A stretch of DNA of 64,000 bases, taken from positions 17,798 to 81,797 of the forward strand of contig NZ_JAUMZR010000001.1 in NCBI RefSeq assembly GCF_030528045.1. Direction: 5' to 3'. The notes below the pieces were generated by a model. It did not search any database. It was not told the DNA's origin and saw only the letters and a program-made list of their open reading frames with translations. Source of the DNA: Streptococcus sp. (lineage in GTDB: Bacteria; Bacillota; Bacilli; Lactobacillales; Streptococcaceae). A program made the position numbers and the translations under genes. This document shows, in pieces, positions 752 to 41,094 of this stretch (positions are counted from its first letter, which is position 1; the number at the start of each line of letters is the position of its first letter).

Positions 752-1660
752 ATGCTATTTGTAGAGAAAAAATTAGGTCACGATTGTACCTGGATAGACC
801 TTGATGTGGACAAGATTAAAAACATGGAAGACCTTTCGGATGTCTATGGATTGGACAAGGAAACCATCGAGTATGCTCTGGATAGAAATGAGCGTGCTCA
901 CATGGACTATCACCGTGAAACGGGAACGGTAACCTTCATTTATAATGTTCTTGACTTAGAAAAAGACAAAGAATATTATGAAGCGATTCCGATGACCTTT
1001 ATCGTTGAAAAACAACGGCTGATCACAATTAGCAATCACAAGAATAGTTATGTGATTAAACGAATGGCATCCTACCTTGAAAGCCATGAAGTTGTTTCAA
1101 TCTACAAATTTCTTTTTGCCAGTTTAGAGATTATAAGCAATGCTTATTATCCAGTGATTGAAGAGATGGATAAAGGTAAGGATGAAATCAGTGCACTTCT
1201 TCGTCAAAAAACAACTAAAAAAAATCTTTTTGCCCTCTCTGACTTGGAAACTGGTATGGTTTACCTGACAGCAGCTGCCAAACAAAATCGTCTCCTCTTG
1301 GAACACATCCAAGGGCATGCTCTTTATCGTAATTTTAATGAGGTAGAAAGAGAGCAGTTTGACGATGCCATGATTGAAGCGCATCAGTTGGTTTCGATGA
1401 CAGACTTGATTTCTCAAGTTTTGCAACAACTCTCAGCCTCTTACAACAACATCCTAAATAATAATCTAAATGATAATTTGACAATTTTGACAATCATCTC
1501 AGTCTTGCTAGCTATCCTTGCAGTTATTACAGGATTCTTCGGAATGAATGTTCCCTTACCGTTTGCAGATGAACCAAATGCTTGGATTTATATTTTGATA
1601 GCTAGTCTCATTTTATGGGTAGTCTTAGCCCAATATTTAAAGAATATTGCTAGAAATTAA
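752..1660 (+). CDS. corA: CorA-family Mg2+/Co2+ transporter
   Basis: 302 aa with a C-terminal two-TM region carrying the signature GMN motif (GFFGMNVPLPF). RBS GGAGAG is upstream. Confidence 0.85.
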   Translation: MLFVEKKLGHDCTWIDLDVDKIKNMEDLSDVYGLDKETIEYALDRNERAHMDYHRETGTVTFIYNVLDLEKDKEYYEAIPMTFIVEKQRLITISNHKNSYVIKRMASYLESHEVVSIYKFLFASLEIISNAYYPVIEEMDKGKDEISALLRQKTTKKNLFALSDLETGMVYLTAAAKQNRLLLEHIQGHALYRNFNEVEREQFDDAMIEAHQLVSMTDLISQVLQQLSASYNNILNNNLNDNLTILTIISVLLAILAVITGFFGMNVPLPFADEPNAWIYILIASLILWVVLAQYLKNIARN

Positions 1661-1677
1661 AAAGAAAAGGAGCCAGA

Positions 1678-2205
1678 ATGGCGATTGAAAATTATATGCC
1701 AGATTTTGCTGTGGAAGCAGTTTATGATCTGACAGTCCCAAGCCTGCAAGCGCAGGGAATCAAGGCTGTTTTGGTCGATCTGGATAATACTCTCATTGCT
1801 TGGAACAACCCTGATGGAACGCCAGAGATGAAGCAATGGCTACATGACCTCCGAGATGCAGGTATCCGCATCATCGTGGTCTCAAATAACACCAAAAAAC
1901 GAGTTCAACGTGCAGTTGAGAAATTTGGGATTGATTACGTTTATTGGGCCTTGAAGCCTTTCACATTTGGGATTAACCGTGCCATGAAGGAATTCCACTA
2001 TGAGAAAAATGAAGTGGTCATGGTCGGCGATCAACTTATGACGGATATACGAGCAGCTCACCGTGCAGGTATTCGTTCGATCTTAGTCAAACCCTTGGTC
2101 CAACACGACTCCATCAAGACGCAGATTAACCGAGCTCGCGAGCGCCGTGTCATGAAGCAAATTACTGAAAAGTATGGACCGATTACATATAAAAAAGGAA
2201 TCTAA
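1678..2205 (+). CDS. yqeG: YqeG-family HAD-IIIA phosphatase
   Basis: HAD motifs are present (VLVDLDNTL; MVGDQLMTDI). It heads the conserved Firmicute yqeG-yqeH-yhbY-nadD-yqeK-rsfS cluster. Confidence 0.85.
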   Translation: MAIENYMPDFAVEAVYDLTVPSLQAQGIKAVLVDLDNTLIAWNNPDGTPEMKQWLHDLRDAGIRIIVVSNNTKKRVQRAVEKFGIDYVYWALKPFTFGINRAMKEFHYEKNEVVMVGDQLMTDIRAAHRAGIRSILVKPLVQHDSIKTQINRARERRVMKQITEKYGPITYKKGI

Positions 2206-2207
2206 CT

Positions 2208-3314
2208 ATGGAAGAAATTCTCTGTATTGGTTGTGGAGCAACCATTCAGACGACAGACAAGGCTGGTCTTGGATTTACTCCCCAGTCGGCACTTGAAAAA
2301 GGCTTGGAGACTGGTGAAGTTTATTGCCAACGTTGTTTCCGTCTCCGCCATTACAATGAAATCACAGATGTCCAGTTGACGGACGATGATTTCCTCAAGC
2401 TCTTGCACGAGGTGGGAGACAGTGATGCTTTGGTAGTCAATGTCATTGATATCTTTGACTTCAATGGATCAGTTATCCCAGGCTTGCCACGCTTTGTATC
2501 GGGCAATGATGTCCTCTTGGTTGGAAATAAGAAAGATATCCTGCCCAAGTCAGTTAAACCGGGCAAGATTAGCCAGTGGCTCATGGAACGTGCCCACGAA
2601 GAAGGTCTTCGCCCTGTGGATGTCGTCCTGGCTTCGGCTCAGAATAAGCATGCTATTAAGGAGGTCATTGACAAGATTGAACACTACCGTAAGGGCCGCG
2701 ATGTTTACGTAGTTGGGGTAACCAACGTTGGAAAGTCAACCCTTATCAACGCCATTATCCAAGAAATCACAGGTGACCAAAATGTCATCACGACTTCGCG
2801 TTTTCCGGGGACAACCTTGGACAAGATTGAGATTCCGCTTGACGACGGATCTTATATCTACGATACACCAGGGATTATCCACCGCCACCAGATGGCCCAC
2901 TACTTGACGGCTAAAAACCTCAAGTATGTCAGCCCTAAAAAGGAAATCAAGCCCAAAACCTATCAGCTTAACCCTGAGCAAACTCTGTTTTTAGGTGGTC
3001 TTGGACGCTTTGACTTCATATCAGGAGAAAAGCAAGGATTCACAGCCTTCTTTGACAATGAACTCAAACTCCACCGTACCAAGCTAGAAGGCGCTAGTGC
3101 TTTCTACGACAAGCACCTTGGAACCCTTCTGACACCACCAAATAGCAAGGAAAAAGAAGATTTCCCAAAACTAGTCCAGCATGTATTTGCCATTAAGGAC
3201 AAGACAGACCTGGTCATCTCAGGCCTAGGCTGGATCCGCGTAACAGGCACCGCCAAAGTCGCCGTCTGGGTACCAGAAGGCGTCGCCGTCGTCACACGCA
3301 AAGCAATCATTTAA
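2208..3314 (+). CDS. yqeH: Ribosome biogenesis GTPase YqeH
   Basis: N-terminal Zn-ribbon (CIGCG...CQRC) and a circularly permuted GTPase (NKKD...GVTNVGKST...DTPG). Synteny supports the call. Confidence 0.9.
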   Translation: MEEILCIGCGATIQTTDKAGLGFTPQSALEKGLETGEVYCQRCFRLRHYNEITDVQLTDDDFLKLLHEVGDSDALVVNVIDIFDFNGSVIPGLPRFVSGNDVLLVGNKKDILPKSVKPGKISQWLMERAHEEGLRPVDVVLASAQNKHAIKEVIDKIEHYRKGRDVYVVGVTNVGKSTLINAIIQEITGDQNVITTSRFPGTTLDKIEIPLDDGSYIYDTPGIIHRHQMAHYLTAKNLKYVSPKKEIKPKTYQLNPEQTLFLGGLGRFDFISGEKQGFTAFFDNELKLHRTKLEGASAFYDKHLGTLLTPPNSKEKEDFPKLVQHVFAIKDKTDLVISGLGWIRVTGTAKVAVWVPEGVAVVTRKAII

Positions 3315-3336
3315 ACACAGAAAGGAAAGGGTTATC

Positions 3337-3500
3337 TGAATTTGGGCGAGCCCCGCGAGCCTATAACGAATACTTTTCGCCGTGGTGTCAGTTGGTACAA
3401 GTGATTGTACCAACTGCGGAAAATTTGAGACCTTAGGCTCAAATTTTAGTCATGAAAGTCCGAAGGACTTTGCTGACGTCCGTCACCACTTCAGAAAAGT
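3337..3500 (+). repeat. SPRITE-like small interspersed repeat, copy 1
   Basis: An intergenic element of about 160 bp containing a perfect hairpin (cagttggtaca-agtgat-tgtaccaactg). Its reverse complement aligns along its length with 28105-28265. Confidence 0.55.
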
Positions 3501-3527
3501 ATAAAAAGAAACTCTTTTAAAGAAATT

Positions 3528-3839
3528 ATGTCATTAACATCGAAACAACGTGCCTTCCTCAACAGCCAGGCACACACCCTCAAACCCATCATCCAAATCG
3601 GGAAAAATGGTCTCAACGACCAAATCAAAACCAGCGTCCGTCAAGCTCTTGACGCCCGTGAATTGATCAAGGTTACTCTCTTGCAAAACACAGAGGAAAA
3701 CATCCACGAAGTAGCTGAAATCTTGGAAGAAGAAATCGGTGTGGATACTGTCCAAAAAATCGGACGCATCTTGATTTTGTTTAAACAATCCAGCAAGAAA
3801 GAAAATCGCAAGATTTCCAAGAAAGTCAAAGAAATCTAA
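3528..3839 (+). CDS. yhbY: YhbY/CRS1-family RNA-binding protein
   Basis: 103 aa. The call rests on a CRM-domain-like sequence and its position in the yqe cluster. Confidence 0.8.
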   Translation: MSLTSKQRAFLNSQAHTLKPIIQIGKNGLNDQIKTSVRQALDARELIKVTLLQNTEENIHEVAEILEEEIGVDTVQKIGRILILFKQSSKKENRKISKKVKEI

Positions 3840-3889
3840 AACCTACTCCAAACAACCGTTTTTACAGAGAATTAAAGGAAGACGAGCCT

Positions 3890-4519
3890 ATGGCAATCGA
3901 ATTATTGACTCCCTTTACCAAGGTAGAGTTGGAGCCAGAAATCAAGGAGAAAAAACGCAAACAAGTCGGGATTCTAGGAGGGAATTTTAATCCCGTTCAC
4001 AATGCCCATCTGATCGTTGCGGACCAAGTACGACAACAGTTGGGACTGGACCAGATCCTGCTCATGCCCGAATACCAACCACCTCATGTAGATAAAAAGG
4101 AAACCATCCCCGAGCACCATCGGCTCAAGATGCTTGAGTTGGCGATTGAGGGGATTGAAGGCCTAGCTATTGAAACAATTGAGTTAGAGCGCAAGGGCAT
4201 TTCCTACACCTACGACACCATGAAGATTTTGACAGAGCAACATCCAGATACGGATTATTACTTCATTATCGGGGCTGATATGGTGGACTATCTGCCTAAG
4301 TGGTACCGAATTGATGAGTTGGTCGACATGGTTCAGTTTGTAGGGGTTCAGCGTCCGCGCTACAAGGCAGGGACTTCCTATCCAGTTATCTGGGTGGATG
4401 TACCGCTCATGGACATCTCGTCTAGCATGGTGCGTGACTTCCTTGCTCAAGGTCGGAAACCCAACTTTCTCCTACCTCAGCCAGTGCTAGACTACATCGA
4501 GAAGGAGGGGCTTTACTGA
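3890..4519 (+). CDS. nadD: Nicotinate-nucleotide adenylyltransferase
   Basis: [15 protein letters not shown] (H/TxGH nucleotidyltransferase motif). Synteny supports the call. Confidence 0.9.
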
Positions 4520-5112
4520 TGGCATACCAAGACTATATCAACTGTTCTCGTGAGGTTTTGTTGGAAAGAATGGCAGAGCTTCTACCTGAAAAACGTTTAA
4601 CCCATTGTTTGGGGGTGGAGCGTGCAGCCATAGAACTTGCGAAACGATTTGGAGTCGATGCCGATAAAGCTGGTCTAGCAGGCCTTCTCCACGACTATGC
4701 TAAAAAGTTGTCAGATCAGGAATTTCTAGACTTGATTGACCGTTATCAGCTAAATTCTGACCTCAAAAATTGGGGCAATAATGTCTGGCATGGCATGGTT
4801 GGCATCTACAAGATTCAGGAAGATTTGGATTTGCATGATCCAGAAATCCTGCGAGCTATTGAAATCCATACAGTCGGAGCTGGTCAGATGACCAATCTAG
4901 ACAAGGTCATCTATGTAGCAGACTACATCGAGCACAATCGTGCCTTTCCAGGAGTGGATGTGGCGCGTGAAATTGCAAGTTTGTCACTTAATAAGGCAGT
5001 GGCCTACGAAACGGCACGAACTGTGGAGCATTTAGCTCATCAGGGATTCTCCATCTATCCCCAAACCCTTGAAACCTATAACGCCTTTGTGCACTATTTG
5101 AAAGAGGACTAA
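4519..5112 (+). CDS. yqeK: HD-domain bis(5'-nucleosyl)-tetraphosphatase YqeK
   Basis: HD motifs (HCLGVERAA...LLHDYAK). Its start overlaps the nadD stop. Confidence 0.85.
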
Positions 5113-5466
<354 letters not shown>

Positions 5467-8246: not shown

Positions 8247-9860
8247 ATGGAAATCATGACACTTGCGATTGCTGTTTTTGCCGTCATCATTGGTTTAGTC
8301 ATTGGATATGTCAGCATCTCAGCTAAGATGAAATCATCTCAAGAAGCTGCAGAGTTGATGCTTCTAAATGCTGAACAAGAAGCAACTAATTTACGAGGAC
8401 AAGCTGAGCGCGAAGCGGATTTATTGCTAAATGAAGCCAAGAGCGAAAGCAAGTCTCTTAAAAAAGAAGCACTATTGGAGGCCAAAGAGGAAGCCAGAAA
8501 ATACCGTGAAGAAGTGGACGCTGAATTTAAGTCAGAACGTCAGGAGCTCAAGCAAATTGAAAGTCGTTTGACGGAGAGAGCTACGAGCCTTGACCGTAAG
8601 GACGACAATTTGACGAACAAAGAAAAAACACTTGAACAAAAAGAACAAAGTATTTCTGATAGAGCAAAAAACCTTGATGCACGTGAAGAGCAATTAGAGG
8701 AAGTCGAAAGACAAAAAGAAGCTGAACTTGAACGTATCAGTTCCCTTTCCCAAACTGAGGCTCGAGATATTATCTTGGCTCAGACCGAGGAAAACTTGAC
8801 CAAGGAAATTGCTAGCCGCATTCGTGAGGCTGAGCAAGAAGTGAGGGAACGTTCAGACAAGATTGCGAAAGATATCTTGGTTCAGGCTATGCAGCGTATC
8901 GCTGGTGACTATGTAGCAGAGTCAACAAACTCGACAGTTCACCTACCAGATGATACCATGAAGGGGCGCATTATCGGTCGTGAAGGGCGTAATATTCGTA
9001 CCTTTGAAAGTTTGACAGGAGTCGATGTTATCATTGACGATACACCGGAAGTGGTAACCTTGTCAGGATTTGATCCGATTCGTCGTGAAATTGCTCGTAT
9101 GACCATGGAAATGTTGCTCAAGGATGGCCGCATCCACCCAGCTCGTATCGAGGAATTGGTTGAGAAAAACCGTCAAGAGATTGACAATAAGATCCGTGAA
9201 TACGGTGAGGCTGCGGCCTATGAGATTGGTGCGCCAAACCTCCATCCAGACTTGATGAAGATTATGGGACGCTTGCAGTTCCGTACTTCTTATGGACAAA
9301 ATGTCTTGCGTCATTCGATTGAGGTTGCTAAGTTGTCTGGTATCATCGCCAGTGAACTTGGTGAAAATGCGGCTCTTGCCCGTCGTGCTGGATTCCTTCA
9401 TGACATCGGGAAGGCTATTGACCGCGAGGTTGAAGGTAGCCACGTTGAGATTGGTACAGAGTTGGCACGCAAGTACAAGGAACACCCAGTTGTGGTGAAT
9501 ACCATTGCTAGCCACCACGGCGATGTCGAAGCTGAAAGCGTCATTGCGGTGATCGTTGCTGCAGCAGATGCCTTGAGTGCAGCGCGTCCAGGTGCTCGTA
9601 GCGAGTCTCTTGAAAGCTATATCAAGCGTCTCCATGATTTGGAAGAAATCGCCAATGGCTTTGAAGGAGTGCAAAATAGCTTTGCCCTTCAAGCAGGACG
9701 TGAAATCCGTATCATGGTTAATCCAGGACAAATCAAAGACGACAAAGTCACAATCTTGGCTCACAAAGTTCGTGAGAAAATTGAAAACAATCTCGATTAC
9801 CCAGGAAATATCAAGGTAACCGTGATCCGCGAACTTCGTGCAGTAGATTATGCTAAATAA
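8247..9860 (+). CDS. rny: Ribonuclease Y
   Basis: N-terminal TM helix, a long coiled-coil, a KH domain ([19 protein letters not shown]) and an HD domain (HSIEVAKL...LHDIGKA). Confidence 0.95.
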
Positions 9861-28945: not shown

Positions 28946-29077
28946 GTAAACTCCTCATAGATAGTATGATTCTACTATACCATATTTTGTGGAAAAAAAC
29001 TATCTGGATTATCTGACTGGCGAAATAAGTGTGGTAAAATGAGAATAAGAAAATGACGGTATAGAATGAGGGGTATC

Positions 29078-30878
29078 ATGTTAGGTTTAAACTTTAAAGG
29101 AAGCTGGCGCCAATATCAAAAACAGGTCTTGGATCGTTTTCAGGACTATCAAGCAGATGGTCATGTTCATCTAGTGGCTGCTCCAGGGTCTGGAAAGACA
29201 ACCATTGGTATCGAGCTAATCGCTCGTTTTGGCAACCCAGCCCTCATCTTAGTTCCGACTGTCACCATTCGTGAACAATGGGTAGATAGGATTCAAACTG
29301 CATTTCTAGGGGAGGGTCAGAGGCTTTCAGACCTCGTTTCCCAAAACTTAAAGGAGATGAAGACATTAACGATTGTGACCTATCAGGCTTTTCATAGCGC
29401 CATGAACCAATTGCAATCACAAGAAGATGGAGAAGCAGAAGATTTTGTGGGGTTTGATTTGCTTGCAAGCCTAAGAGCTCAGAAAGTTGCGACTCTTTGT
29501 TTGGACGAATGCCACCACCTGCGCAATGAATGGTGGAAAAGTCTGGAAGCCTTTCGCAAACAGTATGAACCGCTGCAAGTCATCTCCCTGACAGCGACAC
29601 CACCTTATGACAGCGAGCCTGAACTCTGGGAACGCTATATCCGTATGTGTGGGGAGATCGATCAAGAAATCACGGTACTTGAACTAGTCAAGGAAGACAC
29701 TCTTTGCCCTCATCAGGATTTTGTCTACATGTGTTCACCAACAGCTGAAGAGGCGGAACGTCTCAAACGGTTTGAGGAGACTAAGCGGGACTATATTCAT
29801 CACCTTATAGTCGATCCTGATTTTCAAACATTTGTAGTAGGGTCTAAGGTTCTCAAAGGGGATATTTCATCTGATTTGCTCTTAGAAGATCCCAAGTACT
29901 TGTCTGCTATGTTGATTTATATGCATTCTCAGGGGTTAACGATTCCTCCTTCTTTACAAAATTTACTGGGAACCCAGAACCTTCCAGCATTGACCTCCTA
30001 CTGGCTGGAGACGCTGTTGCAGAGCATACTCTATCAGACACCAGATTGGTATGAGGATCCAGATGGATATAGGAAAAAGTTAGAGGCTGACTTAAAGGCG
30101 CGTGGGTTGGTGGAAAAACGTCAGGTTTATCTGGTTAAGTCTAAGGCTTCTGACCAGCTTTTAACCCAATCTCTGGGGAAGTTGTCTGCCATTGCCGATA
30201 TCTTTTTGACGGAGTATGAGAGTCTAGGTCAGGAACTGAGACAGTTAGTACTAGCTGACTATATTCGCAAGGATTTTGCTGCCTATCTGGGAGATGATCA
30301 GGCAACCATTTCTCAGTTGGGGGGTTCTCCCTTATTTTGAAAGCATTCGTCGAAAAGCTCAGGAGCAAGAGATACCTGTGTCTTTGGCTGTTTTGACAGG
30401 TAGTGTCGTTATTTTGCCTACCGATGTGGCAGCAGAGTTGAAGGAGCTCTTGCCTCAGGTTCCTCTTAATTTCTCATCTATTGGTCACTTGGATCCAAAA
30501 GATTATGTGCAGGTTGGTTTTCCGAGCTCAGCTAAGGGAATCGTAGCGGCAGTGACGGAGCTTTTTCAACGAGGGCGGATTCAAGTCCTAGTCGGAACCA
30601 AATCTCTCCTCGGAGAGGGTTGGGATGCTCCTTGTGTCAATTCCCTAATCCTCGGAAGCTTTGTGGGGAGCTTTATGCTCAGTAACCAGATGCGTGGGCG
30701 TGCCATTCGTATCTGGCCGGGACATCCAGAAAAGACCAGTAACATCTGGCATCTGGTAGCCGTTCAAGCGCAGGCGCTTATCACTCTTCCTAGTGAGGAG
30801 CCTAGATCAGAGAGTAATCAGGATCTGCAGACCTTGTCGCGACGGATGGAGCATTTTCTTGGATTGGCCTATAAATAA
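29078..30878 (+). pseudogene. DEAD/DEAH-box superfamily-2 helicase, disrupted by a frameshift at a G6 tract
   Basis: Motif I VAAPGSGKT, motif II DECHH, motif III SLTATP and motif VI QMRGRAIR are spread across two overlapping frames (ORFs 29066..30340 and 30276..30878). The frame switch maps to the homopolymer GGGGGG at 30319-30324. Confidence 0.7.
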
Positions 30879-30888
30879 TAAGGAGAGT

Positions 30889-31716
30889 ATTGAGACCGGT
30901 TTGGATCGTTTGGATTTTCCAAAGCCCCCTTTTAAGAAAAAGCAAATTAGTGAGTACAATGAGCGAGTTAAGAGTCTCTCCAAGGATCGAGCAGGCTTGA
31001 GAAAAAAATGGCAGGAAGCTCTTGTCGTAGCAGATCAGTTCGAGATAGTTACAGAAGTCGCAACTCAAAAACAGAAAATTCCAGTCATGCTCTTGCTTGA
31101 TGCATTAAAATGGGTTCGCATGTCATTGCTCTTGTTAGCAGTGGATTTGTTGGTTTTGCTATTTAGACTGAGACTGATTGGTGTTTGGTGGCTTACGACA
31201 GTCTGTCTCATCTTTTTGGCCTTTGCATCTTGGCGCTACCTCCGCTATAAGAGTCCTTGTAAACGATTGCAGTCTCTGGGTGAGCAGATCCGAAAGGCTT
31301 TGCTAGATTCGGGGCATCTAACGGACAATCAATCCCGTGTTCAGGTAGAGGAGGACAAGGAAAACTACATGGTTTTCGCCTACCTCAAGGGAGGAAGCAT
31401 GAGGGACAAGGAGCTGTTTGCACAGACTGTGGGAGAGTTCTTTGCTCCAGTGGACAACCAGCGCTATCTCTTGAAGGCAGAGAAAGTCCGACAAGGTCAG
31501 TCACCTTACTATGCCGTGCCTAGTCTTTTTGAGAAGCGCAAGGAAGAAGCACAGAAATTCCTCGACTTTATGAGGCCAACTATCGGACGCTATCACCTCG
31601 TCTACACACGAACAGAGGCCGGACGGAAAACCCTTCTCGAAGCTCGTATCAAAGCTCTCTCCAATCAAAACGACCGTACCTTGACTAAGAAGAAGGTTAA
31701 AAATCGATTAGAGTAG
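30889..31716 (+). CDS. Hypothetical membrane-associated protein downstream of the helicase (or its C-terminal domain)
   Basis: The reading frame continues after the helicase's tandem TAA TAA stops and an AGGAGAG RBS, but no canonical start codon is well placed (ATT at 30889, TTG at 30901). Two predicted TM helices (LLLLAVDLLVLLF; WWLTTVCLIFLAFASW). Confidence 0.4.
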   Translation: METGLDRLDFPKPPFKKKQISEYNERVKSLSKDRAGLRKKWQEALVVADQFEIVTEVATQKQKIPVMLLLDALKWVRMSLLLLAVDLLVLLFRLRLIGVWWLTTVCLIFLAFASWRYLRYKSPCKRLQSLGEQIRKALLDSGHLTDNQSRVQVEEDKENYMVFAYLKGGSMRDKELFAQTVGEFFAPVDNQRYLLKAEKVRQGQSPYYAVPSLFEKRKEEAQKFLDFMRPTIGRYHLVYTRTEAGRKTLLEARIKALSNQNDRTLTKKKVKNRLE

Positions 31717-31727
31717 GGTAGGTAGCT

Positions 31728-31925
31728 ATTCGAAGTTTCGAAGATATGAATTTACTAAAGTTTATATGCATTCTAAACTTAGAATGGAAAGAAATACATA
31801 AATTTATGAGCATTCTAAGCTTCGAATAGTCTAGCTGAGAAAGTTTTGGGGTCTTCTAGTTTTCGAACAGTCATCTTTCTTAAAGTTTAGATGTATTCTA
31901 AGGCTAGAAAAGTTAAAATCTAAAA
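31728..31925. repeat. BOX-like tandem module repeat (boxB-like units)
   Basis: Three or more tandem imperfect units of about 45 bp (..tgcattctaaacttagaatgg.. / ..gagcattctaagcttcgaatag.. / ..gatgtattctaaggctagaaaag..) carrying cttcgaa palindromes. It marks the left edge of the accessory island. Confidence 0.5.
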
Positions 31926-32130
31926 ATAGTAAGAGTCTCTATCTGATAGACGGGTATGTTTCCAGTCAGATAGGGATTTTCTGTTTCTGAAATGACTGAT
32001 TTATCCTGTAAAAGTAAGAAATAGACTGAAAAAGTGCTATTGGGATGATAAAGTAGACAGTTGAGAGGATGAGTGTCCTAAGTTCTTTGCTATTTGTTAG
32101 AATTGTCTTATCAACTTAAAGGAGAAATCT

Positions 32131-32293
32131 GATGAAGAAAGATAAAGAAAATGAGGAAAGTATGCTATCGACACTTCCTCTATGGGGCCTCCTATTTTTG
32201 GTCTGTGTATTACTTCAAGTCTATGTAGGAAAGGATAGGCCTTTGATTCAACCTCCTAGACAAGGAAGCATTGTAAAAACAGATCAAAAATAG
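32131..32293 (+). CDS. Putative small membrane peptide (54 aa)
   Basis: An ORF below the track threshold: MKKDKENEESMLSTLPLWGLLFLVCVLLQVYVGKDRPLIQPPRQGSIVKTDQK. A GGAG-like RBS (aaggagaaatctg) is upstream. One hydrophobic helix. Confidence 0.3.
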
Positions 32294-32372
32294 GTCTATC
32301 TTCCAGAACTAATCCAGTCTTGGTTTGATAAAGAAAAAACTAAATGATTCGTTAAATAGAAAGGTTATCATC

Positions 32373-33134
32373 ATGACAAAAACATTCACTATCTGCCCTC
32401 TAAGCTACACAAACTCTACCAACCGCGAGTTTGAAAGTCTCATGGTAGATACGGGTCAACTACTAGAAGTTTTTGCCAAGGCACATAAGGACGAGCCTAT
32501 GTATAGCAAACATCTCGATTCCTTCAAGAGCAGGCTAGCAGACTTCCAAAGCCAACTCGCTATCGTCGAAAAGAAAGAGGAGACGAACCTGACCGAAGTT
32601 GATCGAAATCGTGACAGTGCCCTAGTCGGTCTCTTTACCCTTCATCGAGGATTTGCTAAGATTAAGGAGACCAAACTCAAAGAAGCCCATGAGACCTTGA
32701 AACCAGTCTTTGCCAAGTACAAGGACATCACCAAGCATAGCAATGGTGTGGAAACGGCAGAAATCAAGAGTCTGCTCAAAACCCTCAGTGAAGAACCCTA
32801 CCAAACAGCAGTTACTAGTCTAGGATTGACACCTATGCTGACGGAGGTGATCAGTGCGCAGGAGGAGTATGATAAGGTGGAAAGTCAGGCGCGTGCGCAT
32901 AAGTCTACCAAGGAAGTCGGCAAGACTAGACAAGTCCGTACCGAACTAACCAGCATCTACGACCTCTTTATGCGCTATACCGCAGCCAGCGCAGAAGCCT
33001 ATCCAGAAAAAGAACACCTGACCAAACTCCTCAAGGACCTGAACACAATCCGAGATAGCAAGCGCCGATTGAGTGGTTCGAGTAAGAAGGATAAGAAAGT
33101 GAAAGTAGAAGAAGCAGAACAAGTAGCAGGATAA
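32373..33134 (+). CDS. Hypothetical protein (253 aa, charged/alpha-helical)
   Basis: ORF track 32325..33134. The ATG at 32373 is preceded by GAAAGG. No recognisable catalytic motif. GC content is like the core genome. Confidence 0.5.
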   Translation: MTKTFTICPLSYTNSTNREFESLMVDTGQLLEVFAKAHKDEPMYSKHLDSFKSRLADFQSQLAIVEKKEETNLTEVDRNRDSALVGLFTLHRGFAKIKETKLKEAHETLKPVFAKYKDITKHSNGVETAEIKSLLKTLSEEPYQTAVTSLGLTPMLTEVISAQEEYDKVESQARAHKSTKEVGKTRQVRTELTSIYDLFMRYTAASAEAYPEKEHLTKLLKDLNTIRDSKRRLSGSSKKDKKVKVEEAEQVAG

Positions 33135-33225
33135 GAATAAACGTCTTTAGATATATTATTATCTAAAGGCGTTTTTTTGGTGGATTCGTGGTATAATTTT
33201 AGTATGAGATAATGGAGGAATAATA

Positions 33226-34230
33226 ATGAATATTCAATATTTCAATGTTTTTTTGTGTCGAAATGGTGAGAAGACAGATTATGATTTATCTAAGTTAATT
33301 GATAAAATTCGAGTATCTTCTTCTGTAGAAAGAACTGTAAAGTTAGGGAGTCAGCATACTATGTTTATGAATAATAGTAGAAACCCTTCAAGTAGTAAGA
33401 CGAGTGGTTCTTCTTTGGATGGTTTAGAGTATCTCCCTAGAAATAGGACAGTCTGGATTGGAAAGTATCGAAGTGAAAAACCATATGAGGGGAGGATAGG
33501 TGAAGAAGAAATTAAACAAATTGATGGAGACCTTTTCGAACCTAGTGTTTGTTTGATTATTCCTACATCGTATCTTTTTTTAATGGAGAGAAAGTTTTTA
33601 GGACCTTCAATAAACCAAATAGGAGAGTATTTATCAAGCTTTATAAAGAGTAACGATCCTAATGTAAAGTATTCGGTGAAATTTGAGCCTATGAAAACAG
33701 ATAGTTTAAAACCTTTGATAGAAGCTTCTGAGAGTATTAAATCAATCGTGATTCAGATTAAAAATGAAGGTTTTCAATTGTCAAGTTTATTTCCAGATAT
33801 TAATGATAGCAATAAAACACTATTAGAAAAGTTATTTGGTAATATGATTGAAGTGTCTGAAGAATTAGATATAAATACTACTACTGTAGCATTTAAGAAA
33901 AGTCGGTATAAAAGAGAAATGGATATAAAACGTGTTGATGGCATTTTAAAGTTATTAAACTCTTCAGATAAAAATTTAATTTCTGCAAAAGTTGAATTTT
34001 TAAATCCAGAGACACATAGATTTGATGAAGTGGATTTAAAGAAAGATGGTTTTTATATTTTGGAAAAAACTTCTTTAAAAACTGAGGATTTTGATAAATT
34101 AGCTAATCTAATGACAGCGCATTATTATGATGACCAGAATCGTAATAAAGATCTTTACTATACTTCGTTTGGTTCTTTGTTATCTGTTGATGAGAGTGAA
34201 TTTGAAATTGTAACTGAGAATAGCATATAA
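33226..34230 (+). CDS. Hypothetical protein (334 aa), AT-rich, island-borne
   Basis: Strong RBS GGAGG. GC is markedly lower than the flanking core. No identifiable domain. Confidence 0.55.
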   Translation: MNIQYFNVFLCRNGEKTDYDLSKLIDKIRVSSSVERTVKLGSQHTMFMNNSRNPSSSKTSGSSLDGLEYLPRNRTVWIGKYRSEKPYEGRIGEEEIKQIDGDLFEPSVCLIIPTSYLFLMERKFLGPSINQIGEYLSSFIKSNDPNVKYSVKFEPMKTDSLKPLIEASESIKSIVIQIKNEGFQLSSLFPDINDSNKTLLEKLFGNMIEVSEELDINTTTVAFKKSRYKREMDIKRVDGILKLLNSSDKNLISAKVEFLNPETHRFDEVDLKKDGFYILEKTSLKTEDFDKLANLMTAHYYDDQNRNKDLYYTSFGSLLSVDESEFEIVTENSI

Positions 34231-34259: not shown

Positions 34260-34802
34260 ATGCTTAAATTTATTGATAAATATTTTTGGTGGAGTTTATC
34301 AATCATAATTGTATTAATTGTTGCAGTGTCTCTCTTTTTAGGAAATTATCTAGAGTTATATGATTGGTTTTACAAAAATGCCTATACAAATAATGCGAAT
34401 TTAGTGACCATTTCAACAGTTTTTATTGGTATTTATTTTTCTTTATACGGTTTTTTATTGAGTTCAAATACAAATTCCCTTATATCAAAACTTAAGTTAA
34501 AAGAATATAAGAGACTAGTCTCAATAGTTAATAGAGGATTTATATCTAGTTTTATTATCGTTATATTTTCTTTTTTTAATGAAAATATCTATAATTGGGT
34601 AAGTGAAATTTATATACTGTTCTTGTTTTTTATTTTTCTCTTACTTATTGGTTCTGCAATTCAAATAGCTATTTATTTTACATTACTTTTTAGATATGAT
34701 TTGAATAAAAAATATAATAGTTTTGATGAAGATATAAAAAAAGAAATTCTAGATGACGAATTGCGTAAAAAGTTAAAACAATTTTTAGATAGAGAGTTAT
34801 AA
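34260..34802 (+). CDS. Hypothetical 4-TM membrane protein (180 aa)
   Basis: RBS AAAGGAG. Four hydrophobic helices and a charged C-terminal tail. The gene ends 4 nt before the hsdS start. Confidence 0.55.
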   Translation: MLKFIDKYFWWSLSIIIVLIVAVSLFLGNYLELYDWFYKNAYTNNANLVTISTVFIGIYFSLYGFLLSSNTNSLISKLKLKEYKRLVSIVNRGFISSFIIVIFSFFNENIYNWVSEIYILFLFFIFLLLIGSAIQIAIYFTLLFRYDLNKKYNSFDEDIKKEILDDELRKKLKQFLDREL

Positions 34803-34808
34803 GAGTTG

Positions 34809-35465
34809 ATGAAAAGAATGATACCTAAAATTATTTTTAATAGAGAAAAGAAAGATTGGATTAAAAGACCTTTATTATCTAATATAGAAAAAATCATAGA
34901 TTACAGGGGTAGAACACCTAAAAAATTAGGTTTAAATTGGAGTGATACAGGTTATCTAGCTCTATCTGCTTTAAATGTAAAGAATGGCTATATTGATTTC
35001 AAGGCCACTGCCAATTATGGAGATCAAGAATTGTATGAACGATGGATGGGAGATAATCATCTTCATAAAGGACAAGTTGTTTTTACTACTGAGGCACCGA
35101 TGGGTAACGTTGCACAGATTCCTAATGATGATTTGTATATTCTAAGTCAACGTACGATTGCCTTTGAAGTTAAACGTGATTTAATTCGGGAAGATTTTTT
35201 AGCCACTTTATTGCGTAGCCAAAAAATATTTAATGAATTAACTTCTTTATCTAGCGGAGGAACTGCAAAAGGAGTTAGTCAAAAATCTTTATCAAATCTC
35301 AAAGTTTGTTTGCCCACATCATTAGAAGAACAATCCGCTATTGGCACCCTTTTCCGCATCCTTGACGACCTTCTAGCAAGCTACAAGAATACCAATCTCT
35401 CAAGGCGACCATGCTTTCTAAGATGTTTCCAAAAGCTGGACAGACAGCACCTGAGATTCGTTTAG
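34809..35465 (+). CDS. hsdS: Type I restriction-modification specificity subunit, N-terminal half (TRD1 plus central conserved region)
   Basis: A TRD-like region followed by the conserved LPTSLEEQSAIGTLFRILDDLLAS central repeat. The frame is lost at about 35372-35380. Confidence 0.7.
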   Translation: MKRMIPKIIFNREKKDWIKRPLLSNIEKIIDYRGRTPKKLGLNWSDTGYLALSALNVKNGYIDFKATANYGDQELYERWMGDNHLHKGQVVFTTEAPMGNVAQIPNDDLYILSQRTIAFEVKRDLIREDFLATLLRSQKIFNELTSLSSGGTAKGVSQKSLSNLKVCLPTSLEEQSAIGTLFRILDDLLASYKNTNLSRRPCFLRCFQKLDRQHLRFV

Positions 35466-36037
35466 ATGGATTTGAAGGTGAGTGGGAAATAAAGAAATTT
35501 AAGAGCATAAGTAATAAAAGAGGGAAATCGAACAGCAAAGGGTATGATTATCCAGCATATTCTGTTAGCAATCAGAGTGGGTTGATTCCTCAATCGGAAC
35601 AATTCGAAGGAAGTCGTTTAGAAAATCTTGAAAAAACGTCATATAAGATAGTTGAACCAAACGAGTTCGCATATAATCCAGCTCGTATAAATGTCGGGTC
35701 CATTGCATTTAATGATCTACATGAAACGGTAATAGTTAGTTCTTTGTATGTCATTTTTTCGTTAGATAACTCAATGGATAACAACTACGCGCTACTGTTT
35801 ATAAAATCACCAGAGTTCAATAAAGAAGTTAGAAGAAATACGGAGGGGAGTGTGAGGGAATATCTTTTTTATGAAAACTTCGCAAATGTTCGGATTCCAA
35901 TACCTCCGTCACTCGAAGAACAACGTGCCATCGGCTCCTATTTCTCTAACTTCGATAACCTCATCAACTCTCACCAAGAAAAAATTTCTCAGCTTGAGAC
36001 ACTGAAAAAGAAACTCTTGCAGGATATGTTTATATAA
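35411..36037 (+). CDS. hsdS: Type I restriction-modification specificity subunit, C-terminal half (TRD2 plus distal conserved region)
   Basis: KMFPKAGQTAPEIRLDGFEGEWE marks the canonical start of TRD2. The C-terminal conserved repeat PPSLEEQRAIGSYFSNFDNLINSHQEKISQLETLKKKLLQDMF is present. It lies in a -1 frame relative to the first half. Confidence 0.7.
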   Translation: MLSKMFPKAGQTAPEIRLDGFEGEWEIKKFKSISNKRGKSNSKGYDYPAYSVSNQSGLIPQSEQFEGSRLENLEKTSYKIVEPNEFAYNPARINVGSIAFNDLHETVIVSSLYVIFSLDNSMDNNYALLFIKSPEFNKEVRRNTEGSVREYLFYENFANVRIPIPPSLEEQRAIGSYFSNFDNLINSHQEKISQLETLKKKLLQDMFI

Positions 36038-36052: not shown

Positions 36053-36967
36053 ATGTCAAAAGTAAAATCAGAAACTCTAAAGAAAGAAGAAAAACCTGTA
36101 GTAGCAATTTGCTATGATTTTGATACAACGCTGTCTCCTGATGATATGCAAGCCCAAGGATTTATACAGAAGCTTGGGTATGAAATCAGTGAATTTTGGA
36201 AGAAATCCAATGGTTTTGCCAAGGCTAATAATATGGACAAGAACCTTGCCTATATGTTTACGATGAAAACAGAATCTGCAGGAAAGGTTTTATATACAAA
36301 GACAGAGTTAGCCAAGTTTGGTTCAGAGGTAGAACTATTCCCAGGAGTCAAAGACTGGTTCGAACGCATTCGAAAATATGGTGAAGATAACGGAGTTATT
36401 GTTGAGCATTATATCATTTCATCCGATTTGAAAGAAATGATAGAGGGGACTTCAATAGCTAAAAATGGTGCTTTTAAGAAAATTTATGCGACTTCTTTTT
36501 ATTGTGATGAAAGTGGGGTTGCGGTCTGGCCAGCTCAAGTAGTGAATTACACCAATAAGACTCAATTTCTTTTTAGAATTACCAAAGGTATTTTAGATGT
36601 CAATGACGATGCAGTGAATGATTTTTTTGCTGAAAGTGATTTACGAGTTCCTTTTAGAAATATGGTTTACTTAGGGGATAGTGATACAGATATTCCATGT
36701 ATGAAGCTAGTCAAAACAAGAGGTGGCTACTCTATCGGTGTATTCAATCCAAAAACCAATGACAGAAAGAAAGTTCACAAAATGACTCAGGATAATCGTA
36801 TTGATTATTTTGTTCCAGCTGACTACTCAGAAAATACAGAACTTGATAAACTAATCAAGACGATTATTAAAAAGGCGGCTTATAATGAATTGTTAGAAAA
36901 CAAGAAAAATGCTGATAAACTTGAAGCAAACTTAAGAAAGCGAAAAAGAAATCCAAAACTAAGATAA
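36053..36967 (+). CDS. HAD-superfamily hydrolase (phosphatase), island-borne
   Basis: Motif I DxDxT is present as VAICYDFDTTL (D22-F-D24-T-T). Motif IV GDxxxD is present as YLGDSDTDIP. A lysine-rich C-terminal tail. AT-rich. Confidence 0.65.
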   Translation: MSKVKSETLKKEEKPVVAICYDFDTTLSPDDMQAQGFIQKLGYEISEFWKKSNGFAKANNMDKNLAYMFTMKTESAGKVLYTKTELAKFGSEVELFPGVKDWFERIRKYGEDNGVIVEHYIISSDLKEMIEGTSIAKNGAFKKIYATSFYCDESGVAVWPAQVVNYTNKTQFLFRITKGILDVNDDAVNDFFAESDLRVPFRNMVYLGDSDTDIPCMKLVKTRGGYSIGVFNPKTNDRKKVHKMTQDNRIDYFVPADYSENTELDKLIKTIIKKAAYNELLENKKNADKLEANLRKRKRNPKLR

Positions 36968-37041
36968 TTATTTGCTAAATTAAAAGAATACCGATTAAGA
37001 TTTATCGATGCTAGTATATTTATATACATAAAGGAGTTACC

Positions 37042-37797
37042 ATGGTATCTGTAACACAACGTATAAAAGAAATTAACCAACCTCGAGGTGGTTATCTGAC
37101 CATCAAGTTATTTTCAGTAGAGCAGTTCGAAGATCACAGAGTTCTGCACGCTGTAGAGTCTGTATCTCCTAGTTTAGTGGGGATTTGTGTGGACTACTTG
37201 ACTCGTTTTATGAAAGGGGCAGAAGTCCGTGATGCTTTCAGAATTTCTCTCATGGGAGCTCAGATGGTTGGTATGGGAGACCTAGCAGAAGCACTACTCG
37301 ATTTGGTGACAGGATTGGATGACTTATCGATAGAAAGTGCTTGTCGTCTAGCGTCCTTTGATGTCGTTTTTCGTGCGGGGAAACAGTATTATAAGCCTTT
37401 TGAGGAAATTTCAGTGGATGCCGAAACGGTAGAGAATATTCGTATCATGGTAGAGCGAAGTCTTTGCTTTTTCGACCTCTATGGTCCTTTGGTAAAGGAT
37501 GGCTTTCATTTTCTTGGAGGTTATACAGACACGATTGATAAGGGTGATGGAGATTTTCTGACCAAGGATACATTATGGGATTTTAAGGTGACTAAAACAG
37601 CTCCTAATAAAGACCACACACTACAAGTCCTTGTATACTATATCATGGGTTTACATTCCTTTGATCCTGACTTCCTTTCTATCGAAAATCTTGGATTTTA
37701 TAACCCTCGAAAAAATATCGTTTACCAACTTCCGGTCTCTTCTATTCCTATAGATTTGATTCGAACGATTGAAAATGAAGTGATTTGCTATAAATGA
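37042..37797 (+). CDS. Hypothetical protein (251 aa) with a possible PD-(D/E)xK-like motif
   Basis: Good RBS AAAGGAG. The segment GDGDFLTKDTLWDFKVTK resembles the D..(D/E)xK core of restriction-endonuclease-like nucleases. This is a tentative call. Confidence 0.45.
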   Translation: MVSVTQRIKEINQPRGGYLTIKLFSVEQFEDHRVLHAVESVSPSLVGICVDYLTRFMKGAEVRDAFRISLMGAQMVGMGDLAEALLDLVTGLDDLSIESACRLASFDVVFRAGKQYYKPFEEISVDAETVENIRIMVERSLCFFDLYGPLVKDGFHFLGGYTDTIDKGDGDFLTKDTLWDFKVTKTAPNKDHTLQVLVYYIMGLHSFDPDFLSIENLGFYNPRKNIVYQLPVSSIPIDLIRTIENEVICYK

Positions 37798-37840
37798 TTG
37801 CTTGTTTAAAAATAAATTGCAAAACTTAGAAAGAAACATT

Positions 37841-39535: not shown

Positions 39536-40111
39536 ATGGAACAAACTAACCAAAAATCCCAGTGCCAGCAACTCTGGGCTAGAAACAAATACCTCGTTTT
39601 GAGCCATTCTAGCAATATTTACAATGAGATTCGCCAATACTTGAAGAATGAACAGGTGGAGCTGAGTCAGGTTTAAGAGATGATTGACCGTGCCTGTCAA
39701 ATCCCAGAACACAATGGTCAGGTTTGCAATGCCTTCCAGCATGTTTGGGGCTATTTCAAAAAGAAAGCGACAGATGCCGAGCGTAAGGACTATATGCTCT
39801 TACTGGATCGCTACCGCTTTGGTCAGGCTTCCAAGGAAGACTTGATCGCTAAAACTCGAGACTTGCTTGATCGCTATCCAAATACCTACTTGCAACATTC
39901 TACTTTACTGAAAGGAGACTCCCATGAGACTTTGGCACGAGGCCTTGATTTCACAACTTCCCCGTCCGCAGCTTTTAGGCCAACATCGAGAGTGCTGTGC
40001 CCTGCGTGGCAATGGTTGGGGCAGAAAGCATGCGACGGTGGACTATGTCTTTACTCACTCGCCCTATCACCTCTATGCTTATCATCGCTTGATCATGGAG
40101 GAGATGGATAA
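39536..40111 (+). pseudogene. DUF1722 (YbgA-like) protein gene with an in-frame TAA nonsense codon
   Basis: A 47-aa ORF (MEQTNQKSQCQQLWARNKYLVLSHSSNIYNEIRQYLKNEQVELSQV) and ORF 39680..40111 lie in the same frame, separated only by TAA at 39675-39677. Together they align to the DUF1722 region of E. coli YbgA (ARHKYLLMAHSQQGYREL...NVLQHLLGYFKRHLSADER..YL). Confidence 0.55.
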
Positions 40112-40289
40112 CCGTGGCTACAATGTCAGTCCAGAGTGGTTGGACAAGAACTACCGTGGTAAGACTTGCTCTTCTTATCAAGACTTAGCAGAGGAGAAGC
40201 TAGGCAAGCCCATCTATAGTGAGCATGATGCAGGATACTATGAGGAGTGTCTGGCTAATCTCCGTGAGAAAGGGATTAAGCTGAAGTAA
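39924..40289 (+). CDS. Conserved hypothetical protein (TIGR02328-like), overlapping the DUF1722 3' region
   Basis: Strong RBS AAAGGAGA 5 nt upstream of ATG. The N-terminus MRLWHEALISQLPRPQLLGQHRE is typical of a small streptococcal family often found next to DUF1722 genes. Confidence 0.55.
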   Translation: MRLWHEALISQLPRPQLLGQHRECCALRGNGWGRKHATVDYVFTHSPYHLYAYHRLIMEEMDNRGYNVSPEWLDKNYRGKTCSSYQDLAEEKLGKPIYSEHDAGYYEECLANLREKGIKLK

Positions 40290-40442
40290 GAGTCAGGATT
40301 ATCTCTAATTTATAACTCTTCTCATAATTTTTTCGAATAATAAAAATGAGACCTTTAGAATGATTCTAAGGTCTTCTTTTTATGGGTATTAGGATTTACT
40401 TTCAATAACTTTTAAGTTATAATTAAATTGAAAAGAGGTTGC

Positions 40443-40811
40443 TTGGTGCATACAATTTACTTCTATAAGGACAAAAATGGAAATGAGCCAGTATTGGATT
40501 ATATGAGAGAATTGGCTAGTCGTAAAAGTAAGGATAGTCGCATAAAACTCAATAAACTAAACGACTATATCGAGCTACTTAATCAGCATGGGACTAGAGC
40601 TGGTGAACCCTATATTAAACATTTAGAAGATGAGATATGGGAACTAAGACCTCTGAGGGATAGGATTTTATTTATAGCGTGGGTTGATGGGAGTTTTGTT
40701 CTCTTACATCATTTTGTTAAAAAGACTCAGAAAACTCCTAGGAGAGAAATTGAAAAAGCCAAGCGTGAACTGAAGGACATAAAAGAAAGAGGGTTAAGTG
40801 ATGAAGAATAG
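40443..40811 (+). CDS. Type II toxin-antitoxin system RelE/ParE-superfamily toxin (HigB/Gp49-like)
   Basis: [22 protein letters not shown]...[13 protein letters not shown]...[28 protein letters not shown] matches the Gp49/HigB-like pattern. The upstream-toxin, downstream-HTH order is typical of higBA. The start (TTG at 40443 or GTG at 40446) is uncertain. Confidence 0.65.
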
Positions 40812-41094
40812 TGCCATTGGAAGTAATTGGAAGGATGTTCGGACAGAACTCTTTACCAAGGAAGAAATTCTTGAAAGCGATATGCGAGTGGCTATTATGA
40901 GTGAGTTAATTGAGGCTAGGCATGAGCAAGGTATCAGTCAGAAAAAGCTAGAGGAACTCAGTGGAGTAAGCCAGCCTGTTATAGCTAGGATGGAGACAGG
41001 AAAGACCAGTCCTCAGTTGGATACGGTCTTAAAAGTTTTAGCCAGTTTAGGAAAGACACTAGCAGTCGTCCCACTTGAACAGGAAAAAAGTTGA
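40798..41094 (+). CDS. XRE-family HTH antitoxin (HigA-like)
   Basis: HTH sequence [27 protein letters not shown]. Overlaps the toxin gene by 14 nt. Confidence 0.65.

Follow-up and report, generated by a model that had tools for sequence, protein, structure and literature searches.

Two candidate defence genes, for a predicted HAD phosphatase and a RecB/Cas4-clade nuclease, between hsdS and hsdM of a decayed streptococcal Type I restriction-modification operon

Defence genes are known to reside inside Type I restriction-modification (RM) operons, and one of them, PrrC, is embedded almost exclusively in Type I loci (bioRxiv 2024.01.29.577857). On the basis of genes embedded in Type I RM, BREX and DISARM loci, Payne, Hughes, Fineran and Jackson assembled the PDC families, a set of 145 curated candidates; the experiments in the same study addressed seven Hma-embedded systems only, with the PDCs lying outside them (bioRxiv 2024.01.29.577857). 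The role of HAD phosphatases as nucleotide-depleting immune effectors has been demonstrated just recently. Chp, a CARF-HAD protein of type III CRISPR, dephosphorylates ATP, dATP and IMP (PMC12715507), the HAD component of PUA-Calcineurin-HAD/Metis converts deoxynucleoside triphosphates (dNTPs) to dNDPs with m6-dAMP as the trigger (bioRxiv 10.64898/2026.01.15.699771), and DS-9 combines a metallophosphatase with a HAD protein (PMC13092281). Here we analyze a 64,000-nucleotide stretch of a Streptococcus sp. genome (assembly GCF_030528045.1, contig NZ_JAUMZR010000001.1, positions 17,798 to 81,797; hereafter, the window), in which genes for a 304-aa HAD-superfamily phosphatase (36053..36967, + strand) and a 251-aa RecB/Cas4-clade PD-(D/E)xK nuclease (37042..37797, + strand) lie between hsdS and hsdM of a Type I RM operon. 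With a probability of roughly 70%, we consider the two to be independent single-gene defence-candidate cassettes, with inferred functions, that entered a streptococcal hsdS-hsdM hotspot, the RM system of which has decayed in this genome.

The separation of hsdS from hsdM by two extra genes, reported in the initial annotation of the window, was confirmed: both open reading frames (ORFs) are present at these coordinates on the + strand, and the flanking hsd genes were identified with Pfam and PADLOC. hsdS (34806..36037, + strand) is divided into two ORFs, 34806-35465 and 35411-36037, with a Pfam Methylase_S domain in each half, and the hsdM ORF (+ strand) runs from a TTG at 37802, with the probable ATG start at 37841, to 39442 (HsdM_N and N6_Mtase, E 2e-107; MTase_I, E 8e-168). 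An AAGGAG Shine-Dalgarno sequence is located 6-8 nt before the ATG of both the HAD and the nuclease genes, which are co-directional and separated by 74 bp. No hairpin terminator was found between hsdS and hsdM in the terminator scan of the window; the promoter and terminator scans gave counts at the chance level and were used solely for this purpose. Among orthologues, dN/dS is 0.07-0.10 for the HAD gene and 0.12 for the nuclease gene, indicative of purifying selection, and because of these low values both are real genes, functional in their lineage, and not chance ORFs.

The 304-aa protein is a predicted HAD phosphatase, given that motifs I, II and IV are invariant in its family. The family alignments contain invariant D22, D24 and T26 of motif I (D22-F-D24-T25-T26 in the window protein), I-I-S123-S124 of motif II and G208-D-S-D-T-D213 of motif IV, so that the motifs I and IV first recognized in the sequence are genuine; K169, R175 and K178, upstream of motif IV, are invariant as well, and the motif III lysine may be among these. 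The protein combines a GDxxxD motif IV with a Rossmannoid core and a cap domain. PF12710 (E 4e-7) is its sole Pfam domain, NCBIfam yielded a HAD-IB match below the threshold, and a search of PDB sequences with the HAD family produced no match. Homologues come in a short form of about 292-304 aa, which includes the window copy and has no recognizable sensor domain, and a long form of about 390 aa with an additional helical C-terminal extension of about 90 aa.

For the 251-aa nuclease, no Pfam or NCBIfam model was found, with the Pfam scan of the family relaxed to E <= 1. The residues G168-D169-G170-D171, D180-x-K182 and Q195-x3-Y199 are invariant in 26 homologues (54-88% identity) and together correspond to the motif II, motif III and QxxxY pattern of RecB-type nucleases. 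The AlphaFold model (pLDDT 93.4, pTM 0.89) was matched by Foldseek to Dna2, AdnA and ACE1 with a probability of 0.95-1.0, but with E values of only about 3e-3. Hence the conserved D169, D171, D180 and K182 and the predicted structure uphold the earlier assignment to PD-(D/E)xK nucleases. The likeness to restriction endonucleases proposed at the same time extends to the fold but not to the clade: the protein belongs to the RecB/Cas4/MGME1 exonuclease and end-processing clade and not to the classical restriction-endonuclease type. We also considered Cas4 proper and rejected it: with C101 as the single invariant cysteine of the 26-sequence alignment, the four-cysteine iron-sulphur (Fe-S) cluster is missing, and the ORFs scanned in the vicinity included no cas genes. 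Some members of the nuclease family are longer, at about 350 aa (P0050, P0058, P0071, P0072, P0106 and P0114), and have at the C-terminal side a DNA-binding domain of the HTH_17/excisionase type, after which comes a hydrophobic tail that probably spans the membrane.

Both genes are already catalogued, as separate single-gene phage defence candidates. The HAD protein is a short-form member of PDC-S34, matching model PDLC05001 (E 3.7e-156; residues 8-299 on positions 7-296 of 384) and, over its nearly complete span, the 284-position short model PDLC05002 (E 4.7e-119), and the nuclease matches the PDC-S61 model PDLC05052 from end to end (E 1.3e-114; residues 1-251 on positions 1-251 of 253). The notion that the genes of this two-gene insert were new to the literature has thus to be abandoned. 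Both families are widespread, more than 1,700 and more than 8,000 homologues having been detected, and a study of Streptococcus thermophilus lists strain ST55 with PDC-S61, without an assay.

Comparison with related loci places the two genes in a recurrently exchanged position. A scan of one genome per species yielded 364 relatives of the nuclease, and 80 loci were kept; the comparison draws on 37 mitis-group loci with S61 next to hsdM and on 43 more distant nuclease loci, and the loci were chosen through S61, so the slot frequencies are anchored on that gene. The 37 mitis-group loci follow the order helicase-hsdR-DUF6261-(variable)-hsdS-(variable)-S61-hsdM-glycosylase-(toxin-antitoxin)-metE, in which the DUF6261 gene is a landmark conserved in many related loci between hsdR and the variable cassettes. 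Because the relatives carry a full hsdR upstream, encoding a full-length protein about 80% identical to Streptococcus salivarius HsdR (domains HSDR_N, ResIII and EcoR124_C), the gene order of this streptococcal Type I family is hsdR-hsdS-hsdM, with inserts tolerated in both gaps, and the contiguous hsdM-hsdS arrangement assumed in the initial annotation is not the norm here. The gap between hsdS and S61 is occupied by a short HAD gene in 13 of the 37 mitis-group loci, by a long HAD gene together with a gene for a 600-aa KAP-family P-loop/membrane protein in 9, and by the KAP gene alone, or by genes for a KwaA-like membrane protein and a 275-aa protein, in about 11; it is empty in 3 mitis-group loci and in a Streptococcus sanguinis locus (L038).

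Several of the other occupants deserve mention in their own right. The KAP-family P-loop NTPase, a frequent alternative occupant of the gap, is 600-633 aa long with internal hydrophobic segments (for instance, L003 8175-9977 and L043 8072-9973), has weak matches to PifA and PDC-S20, and may be an uncatalogued defence candidate. The KwaA-like membrane protein (PADLOC KwaA, E 1e-15) and the 275-aa protein, which has no family match (L004 8591-9959), recur as a pair in the hsdS-S61 gap of about ten loci and may represent a divergent Kiwa-like pair. A Gp49 (HigB-like)/HTH_3 toxin-antitoxin pair is found 3' of hsdM in the window, is variably present among the mitis-group relatives, and has a counterpart of the same type within the hsdS-hsdM gap of S. 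salivarius (L087-L090, around 9100-9790).

Not only the gap but the nuclease gene itself appears in some operons and not in others. An S. salivarius operon has the order hsdR-AbiH-hyp-hsdS-HAD-Gp49/HTH-hsdM, with the nuclease gene absent, and compared with a locus that carries KAP and S61 its HsdM is 98.7% identical and its hsdR is 95% identical at the DNA level. Since a near-identical RM operon is present without S61, the nuclease, too, is an exchangeable cassette rather than a subunit of the RM system. The two cassettes are, moreover, separable from each other. Outside streptococci, where the HAD loci (n=80) are long-form and come from metagenomes, many on short contigs, none of the 80 has S61 beside HAD within up to 10 kb; conversely, HAD is absent from 41 of the 43 distant S61 loci (50-62% identity; Firmicutes and a few Actinomyces). 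Even within the mitis group, about 15 of the 37 loci contain S61 without HAD, and in 9 others the KAP NTPase gene stands between the two. As each family occurs without the other across genomes, HAD and the nuclease are not an obligate pair and are independent in most genomes, contrary to the effector pair envisaged in the initial annotation.

The RM system itself is degenerate in the window. No HsdR-like sequence is present anywhere in the window, as had been noticed, but this absence turns out to have a simple history. Positions 30992-31717 of the window align with positions 1-726 of the Streptococcus oralis SK304 locus (L005) and positions 31710-33224 with its positions 3772-5284; HsdR is encoded at 793-3783 of this locus, and the window has lost 3,045 bp with hsdR in a clean deletion at the junction 31710..31717. 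The two aligned segments overlap by 8 bp at the junction (31710-31717), which suggests that hsdR was lost via microhomology. With full hsdR in the relatives and a clean 3,045-bp deletion in the window, the absence of HsdR is, judging from these alignments, a recent loss and no design feature. A DNA alignment with three orthologues shows that hsdS has lost 13 nt after nt 35389, within its central conserved region, which leaves halves of 219 and 208 aa where the orthologues are intact at 390-422 aa. hsdM, the product of which is 97% identical to HsdM of the S. oralis locus L002, and the nuclease gene look intact. The window therefore holds no complete Type I RM system, with hsdR deleted, hsdS frameshifted and hsdM intact.

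The HAD gene, too, differs from its relatives at two sites. The window protein reads DFDTT instead of the DFDKT seen in every homologue checked (K25T) and SSDLKE instead of SSGLKE (G125D), G125 being nearly invariant in the family. K25 and G125 are both kept in 15 of 15 orthologous loci and in 112 of the 120 homologues listed, and in the remaining 8 the search pattern of one site was unmatched, with no substitution in any. Each change amounts to one nucleotide, and the two adjoin the catalytic motifs I and II; therefore, the HAD allele in the window may be impaired.

An anti-phage role, as anticipated in the initial annotation, is plausible for both families because both recur in defence contexts beyond streptococci. 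The HAD gene is found in the arrangement hsdM-hsdS-HAD-hsdR (L108), between hsdM and hsdR (L129), with an integrase and hsdR as neighbours (L120), and, in L110, flanked by genes for a Type IV restriction enzyme and a TIR protein, and a Type I-like gene lies near it in about 16 of the 80 non-streptococcal loci. For S61, Type I genes occur within 10 kb in 9 of the 43 distant loci, about 5 of them independent, including loci of Kurthia, Bacillus and Clostridia; as a rough estimate, this is about ten times the chance expectation, given one or two Type I systems per genome. A bulk PADLOC scan of the S61 neighbours was dominated by redundant HsdS models and was little informative.

Several observations weigh against the interpretation of the genes as independent defence cassettes. 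The largest non-streptococcal HAD clade (19 loci) adjoins dnaK, and one Lachnospiraceae HAD gene is located between a two-component system and a phosphoketolase gene. The structural match of the HAD protein is generic, to phosphoserine phosphatase-like folds at 14-19% identity, and says nothing on substrate. The neighbours of the distant S61 genes are mixed, comprising a few HsdS genes, integrases, resolvases, helicases and housekeeping genes. No published anti-phage activity for PDC-S34 or PDC-S61 was found in the papers searched. Finally, in S. sanguinis KO16 a long HAD gene and the nuclease gene are 2 bp apart with no RM genes, the copies being diverged from the window pair (73% and 60% identity), and HAD and S61 are also adjacent in locus L039.

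The KO16 locus (L041 4590-10753) consists of DUF6261, a 404-aa protein, a 595-aa HerA-like ATPase, a 237-aa protein, the long HAD and the nuclease, and its sister strain KO9 has hsdR-DUF6261-hsdS-S61-hsdM. Because of the upstream DUF6261 gene and the layout in KO9, we read KO16, which resembles a defence island assembled at this landmark, as the same hotspot following RM gene loss; a common hotspot explains the adjacency but does not prove this reading.

The first four of these observations would fit an alternative without a defence role for one gene or both, in which the HAD protein is metabolic, the nuclease serves repair or a mobile element, and the genes simply hitch-hike in a recombination-prone region. 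We regard this as unlikely: HAD is found in at least three Type I architectures and next to Type IV and TIR genes, the other occupants of the slot are recognizable defence genes (KwaA-like, KAP/PifA-like, AbiH, toxin-antitoxin), and both genes are patchily present among close relatives despite strong purifying selection.

The nuclease could instead be an accessory subunit of the streptococcal Type I RM system that would process restricted DNA or replace the HsdR nuclease, a possibility that finds some backing in synteny. S61 lies directly 5' of hsdM in 37 of 37 mitis-group loci and in several loci of the S. sanguinis and S. salivarius type, the conserved DNA block starts about 30 bp upstream of the S61 start, and Type I genes lie near S61 in the distant genera listed above. 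However, the loci were picked via S61, and constancy within one lineage partly reflects shared ancestry; the same RM system exists without S61; the HsdR proteins of relatives are complete with their own nuclease domain; and most distant S61 homologues have no RM genes within 10 kb. The chance that the nuclease is such a subunit is accordingly small, and a direct substitute for HsdR was rejected, as HsdR is full-length in the relatives and missing here through the deletion of about 3 kb. The related proposal in the initial annotation, of alternative restriction in an RM locus lacking HsdR, is not supported, in view of the deletion of an hsdR that the relatives carry in full and of the occurrence of the nuclease mostly outside RM loci.

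A bolder and similarly improbable idea ties PDC-S34 to adenine methylation. Deoxynucleotides set free when a phage degrades host DNA, whether methylated or ordinary, would trigger the HAD protein or be its substrates, and it would bring about, as a single protein, a Metis-like collapse of dNTPs, with the long-form extension as the sensor. Such a tie would explain why PDC-S34 recurs in Type I (m6A) operons that are unrelated in family and in gene order. Separately, PDC-S61 would be a Cas4-like nuclease that defends alone, with no CRISPR, Argonaute or helicase partner.

Least probable is a cooperating two-gene effector, in which the phosphatase would, for instance, process DNA ends or nucleotides on behalf of the nuclease, or in which one of the proteins would regulate its partner: the co-directional, closely spaced arrangement with no intervening terminator, its repetition in 13 of the 37 mitis-group loci and the adjacent copies in KO16 and L039 speak for it, but the occurrence of either family without the other both within and outside the mitis group, the intervening KAP gene, the S. 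salivarius HAD gene without S61 and the PADLOC curation as two single-gene candidates make it very doubtful.

We therefore return to two independent cassettes, for which the following scheme can be proposed. The operon hsdR-[slot]-hsdS-[slot]-hsdM serves as a hotspot for the exchange of defence genes in oral streptococci, with exchange probably proceeding by homologous recombination that uses the conserved hsdS 3' end and the S61/hsdM side as arms, a route that would suit naturally transformable streptococci. By analogy with Chp, PUA-Calcineurin-HAD/Metis and DS-9, PDC-S34 would be a Mg-dependent HAD phosphatase that most likely dephosphorylates nucleotides, depleting (d)NTP or nucleoside monophosphate (NMP) pools upon infection and starving phage replication. 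PDC-S61 would be a metal-dependent nuclease whose most likely targets are the ends or replication intermediates of invading DNA, which it would degrade in the manner of its structural relatives. Neither gene would need the other or the RM system.

The two genes are part of an island at about 29-41 kb of the window, in which every gene is on the + strand, with housekeeping genes on either side: the left flank, up to 28.9 kb, contains PTS EIIABC, a ROK kinase and a DedA/VTT protein, and the right flank, from 41.4 kb, begins with metE and metF. The island opens with a ResIII/Helicase_C helicase (29066-31716, + strand; about 880 aa) in three overlapping ORFs, represented by two ORFs in L033, which has weak PbeA-like PADLOC matches and lies directly upstream of hsdR in relatives. 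The possibility that this helicase is a divergent HsdR was rejected, as it has no HSDR_N nuclease domain and coexists with a true hsdR in relatives. Beyond the hsdR deletion junction follow the DUF6261 gene (32325..33134, + strand; Pfam E 3e-36), a strong terminator-like hairpin 3' of it in the terminator scan (33139-33174), PDC-M67A (DUF6731; 33226-34230, + strand; PADLOC E 2e-119) and PDC-M67B, a membrane protein gene (34260-34802, + strand; PADLOC E 5e-50). The G+C content of the PDC-M67A/B cassette is 0.25-0.31 against about 0.43 in the surroundings, and the cassette is also present in Streptococcus cristatus DD08 (L031) at 97-99% identity; table S8 of Payne et al. lists PDC-M67 as a recurrent embedded cassette (bioRxiv 2024.01.29.577857). 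Downstream of hsdM, a split DUF1722/pyrimidine-dimer glycosylase gene (39680-40289, + strand) is represented by two overlapping ORFs, DUF1722 (39680-40111) and pyrimidine-dimer DNA glycosylase (39924-40289), which are probably a single frameshifted gene, and the Gp49/HTH toxin-antitoxin pair (40428-41094, + strand) closes the island. The window as a whole is a mosaic, its left part resembling S. cristatus L031 (94.8%) and its right part S. oralis L002 (92.9%), with metE and hsdM 97-99% identical to S. oralis and mitis-group loci, which places the source of the window among the oral streptococci of that group.

The locus is a good example of defence genes inside Type I RM operons and at the same time a caution that an "HsdR-less" operon may be just a decayed copy. 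Its interest rests more in the two candidate families than in this degenerate locus, and the cassettes that occupy the hsdS-hsdM slot of streptococci (HAD, KAP NTPase, Kiwa-like, toxin-antitoxin and nuclease) form a natural series that could serve as a comparative panel.

With Chp and Metis, likened here by description and not by sequence, the window HAD protein shares a HAD phosphatase domain and an anti-phage context, but it has no CARF or transmembrane domain and no PUA-Calcineurin partner, and its neighbours are hsdS and the nuclease. The RecB/Cas4-family nucleases (MGME1, the nuclease domains of AdnAB and AddAB, Dna2, the Argonaute-associated ACE1, and Cas4) are only 10-14% identical to S61, which, unlike Cas4, AddB and Dna2, has no Fe-S cluster of four cysteines and which has no helicase, Cas1 or Argonaute partner. 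PrrC and AbiH, the latter occupying the hsdR-hsdS gap in the S. salivarius relative, are likewise stand-alone defence genes nested between co-oriented hsd genes; they belong to unrelated protein families, however, and whereas PrrC is an anticodon nuclease under the control of the RM complex, nothing indicates functional RM coupling of HAD or the nuclease here. The PADLOC families PDC-S34 and PDC-S61 are themselves predictions only, and the window copies depart from them in lying within an RM operon with hsdR lost and hsdS frameshifted and, for HAD, in the short form that lacks the C-terminal extension of the 384-position model and in the K25T and G125D substitutions. Nevertheless, both proteins match these families over nearly their full length, and embedding in a Type I RM locus, the context that defines the families, is the context in which the two genes are found in the window.

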